Below, in pieces: positions 1 to 19,192 of a DNA stretch of 30,586 nt. Each line of letters begins with the position of its first letter. The stretch's first letter is position 1. A program made the position numbers and the translations under genes. Source of the DNA: a virus. Taxonomy: Duplodnaviria > Caudoviricetes. The stretch spans positions 1-30,586 of IMG/VR virus record IMGVR_UViG_3300008262_004862; one strand, given 5' to 3'. The notes under the pieces are model-generated. The model worked only from the letters and a program-made list of their open reading frames with translations, was not told the origin of the DNA and searched no databases.

Positions 1-1403
1 CTACTGTATTCTATCCTATTTGGCATCATCAGTTTGATGACCTTATTGTACTTAAGAACAACCAAGGAACAGAAGAAACCCGAGTCCGTCATATGGATTA
101 TGGGGTTGTGCTTAACGCTATGTTCTGGAGAAGATTTAAAAACAAAGAAAACATAACTTTCTTTGATCCAAACGAAGTACCAGATTTATATGAAGCATTT
201 TATCAGAACACTGATCGATTTGAAGAGCTGTATGTAAAATATGAAAAACGTAAAGATCTTCGAAAGAAAGTCATCAGTGCCGAAGAAGTTTTCAAGGGTG
301 GTATACTGAAAGAACGCACAGACACAGGTCGCATCTATTTGGTGTTTATTGATAATGTAATGAATCAAGGACCCTTTGATCCTGAATATCATACGATATA
401 TCAGAGTAACTTGTGCTGTGAGATCCTATTACCCACACGTCCCTTTAAACGACTCGACGACGATAGTGGTCGCATAGCGTTATGTACACTGGGATCTATC
501 AACTGGGGATCGTTCCGAAATCCAGAGGACATGCGTAGAGCCTGTAGGGTTCTACAGCGTAGCCTGTGTAACATCCTTGACTACCAAGACTTCTTGTCGA
601 TACAGAGCAAACTCAGTAACGATGAGATACAGCCATTAGGCATTGGAGTTACAAATCTAGCCTACTGGCACGCCAAACGTAGTTTACGTTATGGAGAAAA
701 AGATGCTCTACAAGAAGTTAAAACATGGATGGAGCATCAGGCCTATTACCTAACAGAAGCAACAGTTGAGCTGGCCAAAGAAAGAGGTGCTTGTCAGCAT
801 AGCTCACATACCCGATACGGCCAAGGCACATTCCCTTGGGAGTCACGTGCCCACGGAGTCAACGAGTTAGCCGACTTTACTCCTGAACTTGATTGGGAGA
901 TATTACGCAAGGAGATGAAAGAACATGGAGTACGAAATGCCACTCTTATGGCTATTGCTCCTGTGGAGTCAAGCTCTGTTGTTATTAACAGTACTAACGG
1001 TATTGAATTGCCTATGAGTTTGATCTCTACTAAAGAAAGCAAAGCCGGTTCCTTTACACAAGTAGTACCTGAATACCAAAGGTTGAAAAACAAATATCAA
1101 TTGATGTGGGAACAGAAAGACTGTGATGGTTATATTAAAACCGCAGCAGTATTAGCTGCTTATGTTGATCAATCAATTAGTACAAACACATTCTATAATC
1201 CAGCACACTTTGCGGATCGTAAAGTTCCAACTACATTGATTGCTAAGAACCTAATGCAGGCTCATATGTGGGGATTGAAAACATTCTACTACAGCCTAAT
1301 CAATAAGGCAGGTGCTAAAGCAGTAGCAGAAGAATTACCGCCACAACCAGGACAAGCAACAGAAGAATTTATTGAAGAGGACTGCGAAAGCTGTAAACTA
1401 TAA
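1..1403 (+). CDS. nrdA: Ribonucleotide reductase class Ia alpha subunit, 5'-truncated by the window edge
   Basis: Frame open from position 3 (TVFYPIWHHQF...). Contains QSNLCCEI, ALCTLGSIN, AIAPVESSS, DQSISTN, GLKTFYY and a C-terminal CESCKL redox pair. Confidence 0.97.
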   Translation, partial: TVFYPIWHHQFDDLIVLKNNQGTEETRVRHMDYGVVLNAMFWRRFKNKENITFFDPNEVPDLYEAFYQNTDRFEELYVKYEKRKDLRKKVISAEEVFKGGILKERTDTGRIYLVFIDNVMNQGPFDPEYHTIYQSNLCCEILLPTRPFKRLDDDSGRIALCTLGSINWGSFRNPEDMRRACRVLQRSLCNILDYQDFLSIQSKLSNDEIQPLGIGVTNLAYWHAKRSLRYGEKDALQEVKTWMEHQAYYLTEATVELAKERGACQHSSHTRYGQGTFPWESRAHGVNELADFTPELDWEILRKEMKEHGVRNATLMAIAPVESSSVVINSTNGIELPMSLISTKESKAGSFTQVVPEYQRLKNKYQLMWEQKDCDGYIKTAAVLAAYVDQSISTNTFYNPAHFADRKVPTTLIAKNLMQAHMWGLKTFYYSLINKAGAKAVAEELPPQPGQATEEFIEEDCESCKL

Positions 1404-5706: not shown

Positions 5707-6347
5707 ATTATCAAGTCACTCCGTTATTTGCTATTCCCTTATACCAAACCCAACTGGCTAAATTAACTTCTCTAGAACATGAATTTATTCTAAATCTAGA
5801 ATATGAAAGAATGCCAGCTGACAACGGTGACTACACCAAAGACAAATATGTTTTAGAAAAGCCAGAGCTAACCTTTCTAAAAGAACGCATTGTAAAAGGC
5901 ATAGAACATTTTGTCTACGAAGTGCTAGATTGTTCACGTGAAGTTAAATTTGAAATACAAAACAGTTGGGTCAATAGGCACGGCCAAACAGACTTTGCCG
6001 GCACCCACAGACATTCAAATAGTTTGATCAGCGGTGTGTACTATATCGATGTTGATCAACAAAGCGGTGCTATTGTATTTGAAAAAGATAAAAGTTACTA
6101 TAATCTTTGGCCTAATGTTATAGACATTGAATTCAATTATCAAACACACGAAGACCAAAGTAGGTTAAACATATTCAACGCTGACGGATGGGGCATCTAT
6201 CCTAAAGTAAACGAATTAATAATGTTTCCTAGCCATCTGTATCACGGAGTAGGCGAAAATCATTCCAATATCGTCCGTTATAGTCTAGCATTTAATGTAT
6301 TCCCCAAAGGTAATCTAGGCGGCAAATTGAACACTTTATACATATAG
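5703..6347 (+). CDS. Putative 2OG-Fe(II) oxygenase (TIGR02466-like), tandem paralog
   Basis: LFAIP, SWVN, HRHSNS.ISGVYY, MFPSHLYHGV, RYSLAFN. Confidence 0.85.
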   Translation: MNYQVTPLFAIPLYQTQLAKLTSLEHEFILNLEYERMPADNGDYTKDKYVLEKPELTFLKERIVKGIEHFVYEVLDCSREVKFEIQNSWVNRHGQTDFAGTHRHSNSLISGVYYIDVDQQSGAIVFEKDKSYYNLWPNVIDIEFNYQTHEDQSRLNIFNADGWGIYPKVNELIMFPSHLYHGVGENHSNIVRYSLAFNVFPKGNLGGKLNTLYI

Positions 6348-6377
6348 TTGACAAAATCTAAAAAAGAGTATTAAATA
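6348..6377 (+). promoter_or_regulatory. Promoter for the tmRNA, possibly dual sigma70/late
   Basis: TTGACA at 6348-6353, 17-nt spacer, then TTAAAT. A TAAATA overlaps at 6372-6377. Confidence 0.6.
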
Positions 6378-6380
6378 TAA

Positions 6381-6697
6381 GTTATTGCTGTATGAAGCAA
6401 AGAGAAAAGTGTTCTGGACGCGGGTTCGACCCCCGCCAGGTCCACCATAAAGGAGATTAGCATGAATGACGATCTAACTAACGTAGGAATAGGCGTAGTT
6501 GTTGTTCTTGTAGTATTTGCTCTAGTTCTTTTATGATGGGCCTGACATTGGTTTCGACAGGGCAAAGAGTAACAGAGTGGACAGCACGTCAGGAGTAGAC
6601 GTAAAAAGCAAAACAACGTAAACGCAAACGACGAACAGTTCGCATTAGCAGCCTAAACACTGCTTAGGGTAAGACATACCTCGTAACAGAAACTCAG
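6381..6697 (+). ncRNA. ssrA: Circularly permuted (two-piece) tmRNA, tag peptide ANDEQFALAA
   Basis: The T-arm GCGGG-TTCGACC-CCCGC (6420-6436) and acceptor 3' strand CAGGTCC-A-CCA (6437-6447) lie upstream of the 5' strand GGGCCTG (6538-6544). Together they form a 7-bp stem with G3:U. Tag frame is 6624-6656. Outer ends are approximate. Confidence 0.93.
6462..6536 (+). CDS. 24-aa hydrophobic peptide MNDDLTNVGIGVVVVLVVFALVLL inside the tmRNA intervening segment
   Basis: AAAGGAG SD (6449-6455) 6 nt before ATG. A 17-residue apolar run. The ORF fills the spacer almost exactly. Confidence 0.6.
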   Translation: MNDDLTNVGIGVVVVLVVFALVLL

Positions 6698-6719
6698 AAC
6701 CCGCTTCGGCGGGTTTTTT
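6698..6719 (+). terminator. Intrinsic terminator after the tmRNA
   Basis: AACCCGC-TTCG-GCGGGTT followed by a T run. Sits between convergent genes. Confidence 0.88.
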
Positions 6720-7593
6720 ATTCTATAAATTTTATTGCTACAAATCTGTTGTTCGACACCGGGCCACTAAACTTAACTTGTCCAATGGCAAATTCGTAGG
6801 GCACAGTCTTCGGATCAATATTATAAGTTTTTAACCATTTGATAAACTCAGGGTGCTGATAAATTTTTTTTCTATTTTCGTTAACATCGATACAAAACCC
6901 CCCAAATGAACCTAACCGTCCTGTACAGTCAAGCTCTCTTGGGTAATCATTGTCAAAAAATGATTGTAAAAAACTTTTACCTAATATAGATTGATTTAAT
7001 ATAGCAACTGGACCTTCAGTCTGCATAAAGTTAAAATTTTGTTGTTGTTCTTCTTTGGTAAATTCTAGGAAATTTAAAGAACTTGCGTCTGTTTCAAAAT
7101 CTAAAAATTCCAAAGGCAATATATCGAACAGGAATTTATTTTTATTTGGGTGTACAACATTTTCTAACTTATGTACAGCATCGTTTATAGGATCAATTAA
7201 TGCTAACCAATCTTTAAATTTTTTAATAAACGGCGGCGGATGAAAATTGGGATCAAATGGATTAGGTTGATGATTACGAAATTCCCACCACATACAGTTA
7301 TAAGTGAAAAATCTGTGTATTTGATTTAAGACCTTTTGATCATAGTTAAAATTGGGAGAAATTTCAAACGGTATTTTATATTCAATAGCTTTTAAATTTT
7401 CAAATGCCTGTAGGACATTTTCCCATTCGGCAGGATTCTTGTTATTACCAATCAGTCCAGATCTTCTTAAGAATGATTTTTTAAATTTGTAATCTAAAGT
7501 TTTTGAAAATTCAAACCATTTTCGTATGCCGGGATTATCAAACAACTCTACCGTAACTAAATTTGAATTTTCAAAAAGTATTTCTATCTTCAT
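6718..7593 (-). CDS. Hypothetical protein
   Basis: Long AT-rich ORF. Start MKIEILF at 7593 chosen because TATAAATA (7598-7605, minus strand) lies 4 nt upstream. Confidence 0.7.
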   Translation of the reverse strand: MKIEILFENSNLVTVELFDNPGIRKWFEFSKTLDYKFKKSFLRRSGLIGNNKNPAEWENVLQAFENLKAIEYKIPFEISPNFNYDQKVLNQIHRFFTYNCMWWEFRNHQPNPFDPNFHPPPFIKKFKDWLALIDPINDAVHKLENVVHPNKNKFLFDILPLEFLDFETDASSLNFLEFTKEEQQQNFNFMQTEGPVAILNQSILGKSFLQSFFDNDYPRELDCTGRLGSFGGFCIDVNENRKKIYQHPEFIKWLKTYNIDPKTVPYEFAIGQVKFSGPVSNNRFVAIKFIE

Positions 7594-7668
7594 GAAATAT
7601 TTATAACCCACATTCCCTTCACTGATCCAATATATTTGTTATATACTTGTCCTATACAAACACTCAGT

Positions 7669-14524: not shown

Positions 14525-14919
14525 TAGGTAATAAATTACTGCTAGTAACTCCCCCTGATGATATAAACATAGACGGACTTAGAATATTATTAGTGGGAAT
14601 ATCTCATGATAAAACTAATCTAATATCAACAGCCCTAACACAACTGCCTTCCATACCTAATACCGTTTTATACATGTGGGCAGCAGGTAACGATATTTCA
14701 TGGCTGATGGATAAAAAGAATAAAAGTCATTTAATTATTTTTGATGTAGAAAACCTACCAGGAGAATTAGTTGGCTATTTTAGTGCCCAATTAAATAGTT
14801 ATTATTTTGGCCACCTGCGTGACCTAGGCATAATTAATAACAACAGTATTTTAGATGTAGATCAATGTTATCAACTTTTGGAGAACACAATAACAACCTA
14901 TGAAAAATCAATACGATAA
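14521..14919 (+). CDS. Hypothetical protein
   Basis: 132-aa ORF overlapping its neighbours at both ends. Confidence 0.7.
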   Translation: MIGNKLLLVTPPDDINIDGLRILLVGISHDKTNLISTALTQLPSIPNTVLYMWAAGNDISWLMDKKNKSHLIIFDVENLPGELVGYFSAQLNSYYFGHLRDLGIINNNSILDVDQCYQLLENTITTYEKSIR

Positions 14920-15145
14920 CCGAATCTGTAAAGGTGTTACAGTTTATGTTAAAGAAGGAGAACACATTGAACGTGCTCTCAAAAAATTTAAGAATAAAAT
15001 AAGCGATTCTAAACTGCTAGAAACTTTGAGGGCTAAAGAGTTCTACGAAAAACCTACTACAGAACGCAAACGCAAAAAGTCTGCTGCCAAAGCACGTTGG
15101 AAAAAAAGACTTAAAGATCAACAGTTACCACCAAAACTGTATTGA
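14900..15145 (+). CDS. rpsU: Ribosomal protein bS21
   Basis: V.VKEGE.IERALKKFK...EFYEKPTTERKRKK.AA..R. GGAG SD. Confidence 0.9.
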   Translation: MKNQYDNRICKGVTVYVKEGEHIERALKKFKNKISDSKLLETLRAKEFYEKPTTERKRKKSAAKARWKKRLKDQQLPPKLY

Positions 15146-15170
15146 CATTTTAAATCCCAGATGTTATAAT
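15142..15170 (+). promoter_or_regulatory. Consensus sigma70 promoter with extended -10
   Basis: TTGACA-N17-TATAAT with TG at the extended position. Confidence 0.88.
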
Positions 15171-15199
15171 AGTAATATATTATACATAGAAAGAGATTA

Positions 15200-15781
15200 A
15201 TGAAAACAGATATTATGATAGACTTAGAGACGTTGGATATTTTACCAACGGCTACTATTTTAACTATCGGAGCAGTGAAATTTGATCCGTTTGGGGAAGA
15301 AATAGCTGAACCTAATATGGAAAAATTCTATGTTAAAGTTGACATTGACAGTTGTGATAAGTTAGATTGTACTGTATCACAATCTACACTTGATTGGTGG
15401 GCAAGTCAAAGCAAAGAAGCACAAGAAGAAGCATTTAGTCCCGACAACAGAATTGATATTATAGATGCTATGAATCAACTGTACAAATTCTGTTGGGGAG
15501 CAAAGCGTGTATGGAGTCACGGTGCTGGCTTTGACATTATCATTTGCGAGCATTTATTCCGTAAAATTGGCAAGGCAATTCCATGGCAATTTTGGGAAGT
15601 TCGCGATACCCGCACACTGTTTGACATTGGAGTTGACCCTAAGCGTCCGCCCGTACTAAAACATCATGCTTTAGAAGATGCTTGGAATCAAGCAGTAGGT
15701 GTCCAAAATGTATACAAAAAATTAAGATCATCTAGTAGCATAGATGGTGTTTTAATTAGACCGCTAGCAAATCAAAGATAA
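15200..15781 (+). CDS. DEDDh 3'-5' exonuclease (Rv2179c-like)
   Basis: MIDLETL, IGAVKF, WSHGAGFD, RDTRT, HHALEDA. Confidence 0.88.
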   Translation: MKTDIMIDLETLDILPTATILTIGAVKFDPFGEEIAEPNMEKFYVKVDIDSCDKLDCTVSQSTLDWWASQSKEAQEEAFSPDNRIDIIDAMNQLYKFCWGAKRVWSHGAGFDIIICEHLFRKIGKAIPWQFWEVRDTRTLFDIGVDPKRPPVLKHHALEDAWNQAVGVQNVYKKLRSSSSIDGVLIRPLANQR

Positions 15782-15787
15782 ATAATT

Positions 15788-15862
15788 TTGTAGGACGCTT
15801 CGGGTTCTACAAACGGGCAGTAGCCCAAAATTAAATCTTGCTTAATTAAAGGAGATAACATT
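15788..15862 (+). promoter_or_regulatory. Structured dnaK leader with a ROSE-like SD hairpin
   Basis: Hairpins at 15788-15812 and 15815-15826, then TCTTGCTT-aatta-AAGGAGA (15836-15855) with a bulged G. Confidence 0.6.
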
Positions 15863-17728
15863 ATGAGCAAAGTCATCGGTATTGACCTCGGAACCACCAA
15901 TTCATGCGTGGCTATCATCGAGTCAGGAAATTCCAAAGTTATTGAAAATTCAGAAGGTGCCCGTACTACACCTAGTATTGTTGCCTATACTGAAAATGAA
16001 GTACTAGTTGGTGCTTCGGCAAAACGCCAAGCAGTAACTAATCCAAAAAACACCATTTATGCTTCAAAGCGTTTAATTGGTCGTAAATTTAAAGAAAAAG
16101 AAGTACAAAAAGACATCGACTTGATGCCATACGAAATCATGGAAGCCAGCAATGGCGATGCTTGGATTAAGGCACAAGACAAAGAACTTGCCCCACCACA
16201 GGTCAGTGCTGAAGTTCTGCGTAAAATGAAAAAAACAGCGGAGGACTATCTAGGTCATGAAGTTACACAAGCCGTTATCACAGTTCCTGCGTACTTTAAC
16301 GACAGCCAAAGACAGGCAACTAAGGATGCTGGAAAAATCGCAGGCTTGGAAGTACTGCGTATTATTAACGAGCCTACTGCGGCAGCTCTTGCTTATGGCG
16401 TTGATAAAGCTGATAAAGCTGACAGGAAAATTGCTGTTTACGATCTTGGTGGCGGTACTTTCGATGTATCGATCATTGAGATCGCGAATGTAGACGGCGA
16501 CAAGCAAATTGAAGTTCTAAGTACCAATGGTGATACATTCTTAGGTGGTGAAGACTTTGACCAACGCATTATGGATTATTTGGTTGATGAGTTTAAGAAA
16601 GAACAAGGCTTTGATTTGACTAAGGACATGCTGGCTCTACAACGTCTAAAAGACGCAGCTGAAAAAGCCAAAATTGAGTTGTCCAATAGTTCACAAACAG
16701 AAGTCAACTTGCCATATATCACCGCCGATGCTTCGGGTCCTAAACATCTAATCGTTAAACTCACTCGTGCTAAACTAGAAAGTCTAGTAGAAGATCTTAT
16801 CAATCGTTCATTGGCACCTTGTCGAGTGGCTATGAAAGATGCCGGCGTAAGTGCTTCAGACATCGACGAAGTTATCTTAGTTGGTGGTCAAACACGTATG
16901 CCTAAGGTACAAGAAGAAGTTGAAAAGTTGTTCGGCAAAGCACCAAGACGTGATGTTAATCCAGACGAAGCAGTAGCAGTTGGTGCGGCTATCCAAGGTG
17001 CTGTTCTAGCAGGTGATCGCAACGATGTGTTGTTGTTAGATGTTACTCCGTTAAGCCTAGGTATTGAAACTATGGGCGGAGTGTTTACTAAACTTGTACA
17101 AAAGAACACAACGATTCCGACTAAAGCATCACAGGTGTTTTCAACTGCTGAAGATAACCAACCTGCTGTTACTATCAAAGTTGGACAAGGCGAACGTGAG
17201 CTATTCCAATATAATAAATTGCTAGGTGAATTTAACCTAGAAGGCATTGCTCCTGCTCGCAGAGGTACACCCCAAATTGAAGTAGCCTTTGATATTGATG
17301 CTAACGGCATTATGAATATATCGGCTAAGGATAAAGGCACAGGTAAAGAAAATAAGATCACTATCAAATCAGATTCTGGTCTAAGCAAGGATCAAATTGA
17401 TCAGATGATCCAAGATGCTGAAGCCAATGCTGAAGCTGATAAAAAAGCACGTGAATTAATTGATGCCAAGAATAATGCCGAAGCATTAATTAATACTGTT
17501 GAAAATGACATGAAAGAAGTTACTCTAGCAGAATCAGATAAGAAAGCAGTTGAGGACGCTATTGCTGAACTTCAGAAAGAATTGACTGGCACAGACAAAG
17601 ACGCTATCACTCAAAAGACCAGCGACTTAATTGCTGCCAGTCAAAAGATCGCAGAGTCTAAGCAATCTCAAAATACCGAGGACAGCAAAGACGATGTGGT
17701 CGATGCGGAGTTTAAGCAAACTACTTAA
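15863..17728 (+). CDS. dnaK: Chaperone DnaK (Hsp70)
   Basis: [48 protein letters not shown], terminal VVDAEF. Confidence 0.98.
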
Positions 17729-17733
17729 ACTCA

Positions 17734-17786
17734 AGGGTGCTCAGGTGAGGCCCTAAATCATTCTTGCTTAAAAAGGAGAAAATAAA
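17734..17786 (+). promoter_or_regulatory. ROSE-like RNA thermometer upstream of hsp20
   Basis: Hairpin at 17734-17754, then TTCTTGCTT-aaa-AAGGAGAA (17761-17780). Confidence 0.65.
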
Positions 17787-18227
17787 ATGAATGGTAATTT
17801 AACACGTTTTGATACTAATGCTCTTAACAGAGCTCTAATTGGGTTTGATCAGTTGTTTGATACTTTTGAAACACGATTCGCTAATCAATTAACCAATAAC
17901 TATCCGCCATACAATATTGAGAAAGTTTCAGAAAATCTCTATGATATTGTTATTGCTGTAGCCGGTTTTGAAAAAAACGAAGTCAACGTAGAAATTGAAG
18001 GTGGACAACTAACAATCCGTGGACAAAAAACAGTAGCAGAATCTCATGCTCCAGAATATCTACATCGTGGACTTGGTTTCCGAGATTTCGAGCGTAGATT
18101 TACACTTGCGGAACATATGGAAGTAATTAAGGCTGAAATTAAAAACGGTCTACTATCAATCCAGATCGAACGCAAAGTTCCAGAGGCTCTATTACCACGC
18201 CAGATTGAAGTGGTTGAGGTTAAGTAA
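17787..18227 (+). CDS. Small heat shock protein (Hsp20/IbpA-like)
   Basis: IGFDQLF, NYPPYNI, IAVAGF, YLHRG, FERRFTLAE, NGLL.I. Confidence 0.95.
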   Translation: MNGNLTRFDTNALNRALIGFDQLFDTFETRFANQLTNNYPPYNIEKVSENLYDIVIAVAGFEKNEVNVEIEGGQLTIRGQKTVAESHAPEYLHRGLGFRDFERRFTLAEHMEVIKAEIKNGLLSIQIERKVPEALLPRQIEVVEVK

Positions 18228-18274
18228 TAGTATGTAATCCGGGGGAGGAAACTCCCCCTAAACGGAGCAATAAA

Positions 18275-18577
18275 ATGGCTGATACAGATATCCAAATAGA
18301 AGACAAAATTAAAATAGAACTTCAACCACCAAAAATGTGGAAAGTGGTGTTCTTAAACGATGACCATACTCCTATGGAATTTGTTATAGAATTGTTGATG
18401 GGTGTGTTCAAACACGATGAAGCTAGATCAAGAGACATCACATTAGAGATACACGAAACTGGTGCTGCTGTAGTAGGTGTCTATACATACGAAATAGCAG
18501 AAAACAAAGGTGTTGAATCAAGTCGGCTAGCTCAAGAGCACGGTTTTCCTTTACAGATTCGCGTAGAGGAAGAATAA
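18275..18577 (+). CDS. clpS: Clp protease adaptor ClpS
   Basis: PPKMWKVVFLNDDHTPMEFV, IHETG.AVVG.Y.YEIAE.K, FPL. Confidence 0.95.
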   Translation: MADTDIQIEDKIKIELQPPKMWKVVFLNDDHTPMEFVIELLMGVFKHDEARSRDITLEIHETGAAVVGVYTYEIAENKGVESSRLAQEHGFPLQIRVEEE

Positions 18578-18581
18578 TTTT

Positions 18582-18627
18582 TCCTGGTATACGCAGATCA
18601 ATAAATATCTGCGTATATATTTCAGGA
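18582..18627 (+). promoter_or_regulatory. SD-occluding hairpin containing a late promoter
   Basis: Perfect 11-bp inverted repeat (18588-18598/18607-18617) with TAAATA at 18602-18607. TCCTG pairs with CAGGA of the SD. Confidence 0.6.
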
Positions 18628-18634
18628 GTACTAA

Positions 18635-19192
18635 ATGAGTCTTAAAGAACTTACTAAAGAAAAGCACCAGGACGCAGAACGCACAGAATTTGCTAAACTT
18701 TTGTTGAGCGGAAAAATCAGCAAAGAAATGTACGGGCTCTATCTAGCCCAGATGTTAGAAGTCTACGGCAAATTAGAATATTATTGTGTAAAAGCAGAAC
18801 TACTAAAAGATTTACCCGGACTAGGTCGTGCTTTATATATTTTTGAAGATCTAAAAGAACTAGACATTCCCCTAACTGGTATAAAGATACTAGAAGCTAC
18901 TAGTGCCTATTCCGAATACCTTGCTACCCTCGCAGAAGATGAAACCAAACACCACTTACTAATGGCTCATCTATATGTACGACATATGGGCGATCTATAT
19001 GGCGGTCAGATGATTGCTAAAAAAGTGCCTGGCAGCGGTAAGTTTTATCAATTTAGAAATAAAGAAGAATTAATAGGTAAGATACGAGCCAAACTCACGG
19101 ATGACCTAGGCGATGAAGCTAATATCGCATTTGATCATGCTATTGCTATTATGAAGGAACTTAATGAGTCTAGTTTGGAACACGCTGATTGA
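18635..19192 (+). CDS. hemO: Heme oxygenase
   Basis: LKELTKEKHQDAE (proximal His) and AHLYVRHMGDLYGGQMI. Confidence 0.92.
   Translation: MSLKELTKEKHQDAERTEFAKLLLSGKISKEMYGLYLAQMLEVYGKLEYYCVKAELLKDLPGLGRALYIFEDLKELDIPLTGIKILEATSAYSEYLATLAEDETKHHLLMAHLYVRHMGDLYGGQMIAKKVPGSGKFYQFRNKEELIGKIRAKLTDDLGDEANIAFDHAIAIMKELNESSLEHAD

Follow-up and report, generated by a model that had tools for sequence, protein, structure and literature searches.

A probable exchangeable and often gene-bearing slot in the spacer of phage two-piece tmRNA genes

The permuted tmRNA locus

The window, by which we mean the whole 30,586-nt stretch of virus record IMGVR_UViG_3300008262_004862 (Duplodnaviria; Caudoviricetes), is a 30.6-kb contig encoding ribonucleotide reductase, 2OG-Fe(II) oxygenases, ribosomal protein S21, Hsp20 and DnaK. 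ARAGORN calls a permuted tmRNA gene at 6355-6747 with the tag ANDEQFALAA*, and the locus scores 140 bits with Rfam profile RF01850 and 130 bits with RF04321. The acceptor piece lies 5′ of the coding piece with an intervening sequence between them, the arrangement of a beta-type two-piece tmRNA. This is the single tmRNA gene of the record, which is itself a fragment.

All parts of the gene lie on the plus strand. The acceptor piece (6386..6447, from ARAGORN and Rfam, the 5′ end being approximate) contains the T arm (6420-6436), the acceptor 3′ strand (6437-6443), the discriminator A (6444) and an encoded CCA (6445-6447). The coding piece (6538..6720) begins with the acceptor 5′ strand (6538-6544), carries the tag frame at 6624-6656, and ends in a hairpin and T run resembling an intrinsic terminator (6696..6722). 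Alanine identity is present, with a G3-U70 pair, the discriminator A and the CCA (6437-6447 set against 6538-6544), and a tag ending in AA; one pair of the acceptor stem shows compensatory changes in 12 of 26 homologues. Gene order, the G3-U70 acceptor stem, encoded CCA, tag and terminator are all shared with betaproteobacterial two-piece tmRNAs (RF01850, RF04321) and with that of phage Melnitz.

A weak candidate promoter, picked by eye, lies at 6348..6377 (+) and consists of TTGACA (6348-6353) and the T4-late-like TTAAATA (6371-6377); the T4 late consensus is given as TATAAAT (PMC9004378). A sigma-70 scan found no site there, and none on either strand in 6200-6800, spacer included. Convergent with the tmRNA terminator is a 297-aa ORF (6718-7611, minus strand) that has no PHROG match and no Atlas look-alike. 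Farther away, 8-12 kb downstream of the tmRNA gene (14900-19192, plus strand), are S21, DnaK, Hsp20 and a ClpS-sized match to an ATP-dependent protease family.

The intervening sequence occupies 90 nt (6448..6537), and its excision is expected from the known biology of two-piece tmRNAs, whose spacer, as Keiler in 2000 and Sharkady and Williams in 2004 are said to have described, is released by RNase P and 3′-end processing. The initial annotation described this spacer, between the CCA ending at 6447 and the mature 5′ G at 6538, as filled almost wholly by a membrane micropeptide gene, and each element was found in its place: an SD, AAAGGAG, at 6449-6455, an ATG at 6462, the claimed peptide, and a TGA at 6534-6536 that ends 1 nt before the G. 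The ORF (6462..6536, plus strand) encodes the 24-residue MNDDLTNVGIGVVVVLVVFALVLL, with an acidic N-terminus and one predicted membrane helix, followed by TGA. It had also been proposed that the spacer ends pair and bury the SD, and folding agrees, since region 6433-6547 is predicted to form one long helix together with the acceptor stem (z = -3.27). By folding, the 5′ arm of this terminal stem (6448..6460, plus strand) includes the SD, whose duplex with the anti-SD is put at -8.7 kcal/mol (calculated on the identical spacer of L058). The 3′ arm (6522-6533) doubles as the last codons, and with the 4-nt end TGAT it completes the element at 6522..6537 (plus strand); the TGAT faces ACCA in the helix and provides the stop codon. 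Eight sequencing runs (search shares at most 0.31) hold contigs with the tmRNA halves of relatives only, leaving the spacer interior uncovered.

Selection on the spacer gene, and the geometry of the stem around it

Spacers were collected from IMG/VR by five pattern scans that yielded 119 of about 400, 119 of about 300, 119 of about 330, 45 and 97 stretches. The first two scans were unselected for SD or ATG; the other three were selected and played no part in the frequency tests. Only records in which ARAGORN or a tag motif confirmed a permuted tmRNA were retained (32 viral records failed), and merging of identical spacers left 248 distinct ones among the matches listed, of which 98 are filled by an ORF, 25 have an ORF that runs on into the coding piece, 5 are partly filled and 120 are non-coding.

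Filling ORFs are more frequent than chance provides. In the two unselected scans, ATG-led filling ORFs occur in 20 of 102 and 19 of 72 distinct spacers among the matches listed, against means of 3.3 and 2.5 (maxima 8 and 7) in 100 shuffles of the spacer interiors with arms kept. An SD-like motif within the first 10 nt is found in 27 of 32 filled spacers and in 15 of 119 unfilled ones; these counts and the shuffle counts come from 290 ARAGORN-confirmed records. That the TGA ends 1 nt ahead of the 5′ G does not in itself argue for coding, since non-coding spacers share this ending: 219 of the 248 spacers, of all kinds among the matches listed, end in TGAT or TAAT.

The window's peptide family was found in at least 30 distinct spacers in 31 backbone contexts. 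A conserved gene had been expected to keep its SD, frame and hydrophobicity among homologues, and all three are kept in 30 distinct spacers; the contrary outcome, homologous spacers that keep the stem and lose the ORF, was looked for as well, and the homologues retain the ORF. A tree-based codon model gives omega 0.13 (lnL -964.6, against -1030.5 at omega = 1, or 66 log units better), from quick trees searched separately. Selection was measured on the core, with the first codon and the last four codons removed; pN/pS is 0.47 overall, and 52 close pairs, which are not independent of one another, have pN 0.081 and pS 0.333. The distance from ATG to the 5′ G is 70, 73 or 76 nt only, so that length differences are whole codons, and stops close one shifted frame in 30 of 30 sequences and the other in 24 of 30. 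A strongly hydrophobic stretch of 17 residues is common to the 30 peptides, which all have a net charge of -1 or -2 and are uncharged over their last 14 positions. The peptide has no Pfam match and no PHROG match. On these comparisons of sequences, the ORF is judged to be under purifying selection at the protein level.

The family is confined to tmRNA spacers as far as our searches extend. A flank-independent pattern for the N-terminal half gave 33 matches (19 viral and 14 metagenomic, partly from the same contigs), all 33 inside tmRNA spacers, as were 8 of 8 confirmed family matches in a separate search; narrow pattern searches of viral and metagenome sequence found no free-standing copies. 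This fits a specialised resident of the slot better than a casual passenger. One member, L388, is on a 7.6-kb contig of a metagenome bin, which is probably misbinned phage DNA. Relatives that carry the family reach 278-353 kb.

The geometry of the terminal stem is conserved. Among 242 spacers of at least 50 nt in the matches listed, 184 have a stem that begins immediately behind the CCA with 4 nt left over, and 44 more pair on the same diagonal. Pairing between the two arms of one spacer is much stronger than between arms swapped among spacers (-10.1 vs -4.8 kcal/mol). The window was aligned with 24 other family members and one close relative; in these 26 rows, 91.6% of the cells of a 12-pair stem are paired and three pairs have changed on both sides; the covariation score comes mostly from the acceptor stem. 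Stems of coding spacers are weaker than those of non-coding ones (median -7.65 vs -12.65 kcal/mol) and richer in G-U pairs (24% vs 9%), which may reflect only the base make-up of SD sites. On truncated nascent transcripts, folding predicts an open SD (probability 0.54-0.64) as long as the 3′ arm is missing; with the full precursor the mean falls to 0.08, and the excised spacer gives 0.14. Folding of the spacer interior gives no signal (median z -0.31).

Some spacers from bacterial genomes (L582, L584, L586, L594 and L609) have the same terminal stem and a short overhang, so the geometry is not specific to phages. The bacterial set had 42 loci, of which 41 were parsed: 30 top-scoring Alphaproteobacteria, seven more with long matches, and four Burkholderiales. 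An SD-led filling ORF was found in none of these 41 spacers, a small sample. The median spacer is 27.5 nt in the 30 top-scoring Alphaproteobacteria vs 87 nt in phages, and the length-matched bacterial pattern control was a poor one, as only 6 of its 82 matches were permuted tmRNAs, L388 among them.

Exchange of cargo between tmRNA genes

The 128 coding spacers fall into 61 clusters among the matches listed, some of whose small hydrophobic members may be distant relatives of one another. Cargo ranges from 17 to 146 codons and has no common sequence. The Pfam cut-off was passed by three of 49 cargo proteins, a thioredoxin (L179), an SNase nuclease (L304) and a PGDYG protein (L265), and the majority of the 61 clusters match no family. 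Fourteen of the 61 are membrane-like; a membrane peptide is thus a common cargo, not the rule. Other cargo families were also tested for selection, and dN/dS is below 0.45 in nine of 11; the remaining two, at 0.57 (four sequences) and 0.91 (three sequences), give a weak signal or none.

Near-identical loci carry different cargo. Unrelated cargo separates L031 from L047, two loci with 97.7% identity over 2.1 kb, and L060 from L465, with about 95%; 15 locus pairs were compared in this way, most others having only the tmRNA gene in common. For tmRNA backbones at least 97% identical, cargo differs in 14 of 22 pairs, a share inflated by the merging of identical spacers, and 5 of the 22 pairs set a coding against a non-coding spacer. 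The window's family occurs in backbones from 50 to 97% alike. On a backbone tree of 230 rows and 210 nt, which is poorly resolved and whose backbones are themselves mosaic, that family is nearly as dispersed as randomised labels, requiring 24 changes against a shuffled mean of 27.7 (1 of 200 shuffles as low), and coding status requires 58 against 76.7. Coding status tracks the backbone tree, so lineage matters too and swapping is not free. Tags range from 10 to about 31 residues among tmRNAs with the window's cargo family; the tag region is therefore exchanged or extended independently.

Several individual spacers deserve mention. In L046 a complete tRNA-Asn(GTT) fills the spacer (1224-1301, plus strand), and tRNA or tRNA-shaped cargo is also seen in L049, in L052, L087 and L097, and in L069 and L091. 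ARAGORN at a relaxed threshold calls tRNAs in 6 of 114 non-coding spacers, and a T-loop motif is present in 10. A candidate reading of non-coding cargo as structured RNA in bulk was rejected, since interiors fold no better than their shuffles (median z -0.48, with 17 of 96 at or below -1.5); in 20 loci searched with Rfam, the spacers matched no family other than tmRNA. The membrane-peptide cargo of L055 (1221-1303, minus strand) and L345 has its frame broken soon past the start, which is consistent with dispensable cargo. The 122-aa cargo of L504 has a relative, 67% identical, inside a larger ORF of L679 (601-951, plus strand), where a short direct repeat bounds the segment and the surroundings hold no tmRNA; 15 of 16 matches to the L504 cargo show tmRNA flanks. 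The L679 case suggests a domain captured from an ordinary gene.

The run-on ORFs (L020, L023, L541 and others, 25 spacers) have a strong SD and stop 13-153 nt inside the coding piece, at a position that differs with the backbone inside one family; one run-on entry, L552, in fact comes from a longer spacer that was parsed wrongly. A circular-RNA reading was dropped, as no joints were found in the sequencing runs (which hold relatives' tmRNA halves) and the frame in which run-on members terminate varies within one family. Two cultured phages, BUCT-ZZ01 (L234, ON615601.1) and RsoM2USA (L235, MG752970.1), have unannotated permuted tmRNA genes; the spacer of the former is 111 nt without an SD-led ORF and that of the latter is very short.

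Interpretation and related systems

Coding selection, conserved stem geometry and exchange of cargo between near-identical loci are observed. We consider it probable that they describe an exchangeable slot, which in the window holds a conserved 24-residue gene for a predicted single-pass membrane protein, likely translated from the tmRNA precursor as a passenger. The slot would be closed by a stem of about 11 bp that prolongs the acceptor helix, and we infer that the tRNA-like domain can therefore fold with any cargo. Ribosome loading would take place chiefly during transcription, when the SD has been made and the 3′ arm has not yet closed over it; RNase P and 3′-end processing would then release the spacer with its SD mostly buried. 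Cargo would thereby ride on a strong, self-contained transcription unit, with the stem limiting output, and is likely swapped by recombination within the conserved tmRNA halves and arms. We take the peptide to be, most likely, an accessory protein that can be dispensed with, and our guess is that it acts on a host or phage membrane protein. The exchangeable slot is the larger finding, and it goes beyond what the initial annotation had seen.

That annotation had proposed a dedicated system in which translation of the peptide, a putative toxin or protease regulator, is coupled to tmRNA maturation. The selected gene for a single-pass membrane-type peptide stands, but the dedicated coupling is not supported in the form proposed, because near-identical tmRNA genes carry unrelated ORFs or non-coding spacers and so require neither the peptide nor any translation of the spacer. 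A regulatory form of coupling, where ribosomes in the spacer open the stem, cover the acceptor 5′ strand at the TGA and delay maturation, tying tmRNA level to ribosome traffic, is in our view unlikely. Competition is physically likely with an SD in the stem and a stop adjoining the RNase P site; of the 43 SD-led families that lack their own stop, 31 use the one in the arm, where chance would give one third (p = 3e-7), and the window's family is found solely in the slot in all 33 pattern matches. Yet 120 of the 248 spacers among the matches listed are non-coding, near-identical pairs differ in coding status, cargo of very different length shares no sequence, and the stop position is fixed by a motif common to all kinds of spacer, non-coding ones included, which makes an obligatory coupling to maturation unlikely. 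It is similarly improbable that the apparent slot is a device for expression gated by trans-translation, in which the uncut precursor is translated, RNase P leaves a message that is non-stop or has its stop at the very end, and the product is tagged by the phage's own tmRNA; if this were true, cargo output would report the ribosome-rescue state of the infected cell, and a cassette swap would change which gene is controlled.

A feedback like that of arfA, in which the RNase P-cut spacer is a non-stop or nearly non-stop message whose product is tagged and degraded and accumulates only when maturation or trans-translation lags, seems to us quite improbable. The 25 run-on spacers (12 of 56 SD-led families) would become non-stop once cut, three run-on families are under purifying selection (dN/dS 0.19-0.28), and the window itself has only 4 nt after its last sense codon; rescue activity is reported to fall beyond about nine nucleotides, and arfA and brfA to be controlled by non-stop messages (PMC8012679). 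Against it, most families, the window's included, keep an in-frame stop before the cut at the above-chance rate just given, the SD would still be paired in the excised spacer, and thioredoxin, nuclease and membrane peptides have no evident tie to ribosome rescue. A selfish or neutral mini-gene, similar to that for S23p, that spreads by recombination and is hardly expressed would agree with the buried SD, the scattered distribution and the frameshifted cargo of L055 and L345, and Coxiella S23p is apparently not produced in vivo (PMC4990558). We regard this as very improbable, since there is no mobility gene and an omega of 0.13 on the amino-acid sequence means that the product must be made and matter. 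Lastly, the ORF might be a by-product of RNA constraints, namely a GU-rich spacer, a fixed TGAT end and a purine-rich arm, and the stop and part of the SD do sit in structurally constrained arms. The synonymous bias was measured on a core that excludes these ends, indels preserve the frame and the interior lacks a folding signal; to judge from the selection results this reading is largely refuted, and we find it scarcely tenable.

The exchangeable slot has partial precedents. In the accessible part of PMC9004378, 53 of 133 unique phage tmRNAs are two-piece and no spacer protein gene is mentioned, whereas the window's spacer has one. The S23p ORF, the nearest case known, lies in 23S rRNA intervening sequences of Coxiella, Leptospira, Xanthomonas and Brucella, and is likewise an ORF in a stem-bounded piece excised from a stable RNA without religation, sporadic and horizontally moved like the tmRNA spacer cargo (PMC4990558). 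As described in that source, however, the host is rRNA, excision is by RNase III, there is one protein family, the SD is poor, and the gene is decaying and apparently not made in Coxiella. Here the host is tmRNA, a strong SD is built into the stem, there are 61 cargo clusters among the matches listed, and purifying selection is evident. The window's spacer shares the stem of complementary ends with S23p-type sequences and lies in a tmRNA instead of an rRNA helix, and no S23p match was found among the 49 cargo proteins scanned. Permuted tmRNA genes whose intervening sequence holds a repeat or a tRNA-Ala gene (PMC11915505) have a passenger in the same slot, and tRNA-shaped passengers were seen here too; in the accessible part of that source they are single, non-coding curiosities, with no protein genes or exchange reported.

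PeSL cassettes of T4-type phages likewise shuffle small unrelated ORFs between conserved flanks of expression signals, but they are repeated promoter-terminator modules (PMC2839356), whereas here a single structural RNA gene supplies both flanks, as its two halves, and its precursor encloses the cargo. No repeated module of promoter and stem-loop was seen in the window, with one tmRNA gene in the fragment and no promoter in the spacer. In arfA and brfA (PMC8012679) the likeness is that RNA cleavage could also remove or crowd the stop of the run-on class, which by sequence applies to the 12 run-on SD-led families; unlike them, the window's ORF still has its stop, which ends 1 nt short of the presumed cut, and it does not encode a rescue factor.

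In the window, a small hydrophobic peptide is combined with an SD that is sequestered in the predicted structure. Both features are found in type I toxin-antitoxin systems, whose toxins are small and hydrophobic, with an SD sequestered by mRNA structure and a cis-encoded antisense RNA, and are toxic when expressed; many have basic C-termini.

The literature searched, mostly open-access and including the accessible parts of PMC4131195, PMC7162821, PMC3978253 and PMC10085705, yielded no description of protein genes in tmRNA spacers, in agreement with the initial annotation, which knew of none; the tmRNA database of PMC11915505 may bear on novelty. A gene nested in the excised piece of a stable-RNA precursor is known, and the known cases lack the exchangeable character of the slot. 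In phages, the spacer of two-piece tmRNA should probably be read in many cases as an exchangeable place for genes rather than as a processing leftover, which points to a hidden class of small phage genes. This reading also explains why long-spacer phage tmRNAs are missed by ARAGORN, which made 21 tmRNA calls in 65 such sequences. The slot offers a compact natural system in which translation and RNase P processing meet on one transcript, and a testable reason for aquatic phages to retain the permuted form of the tmRNA gene.
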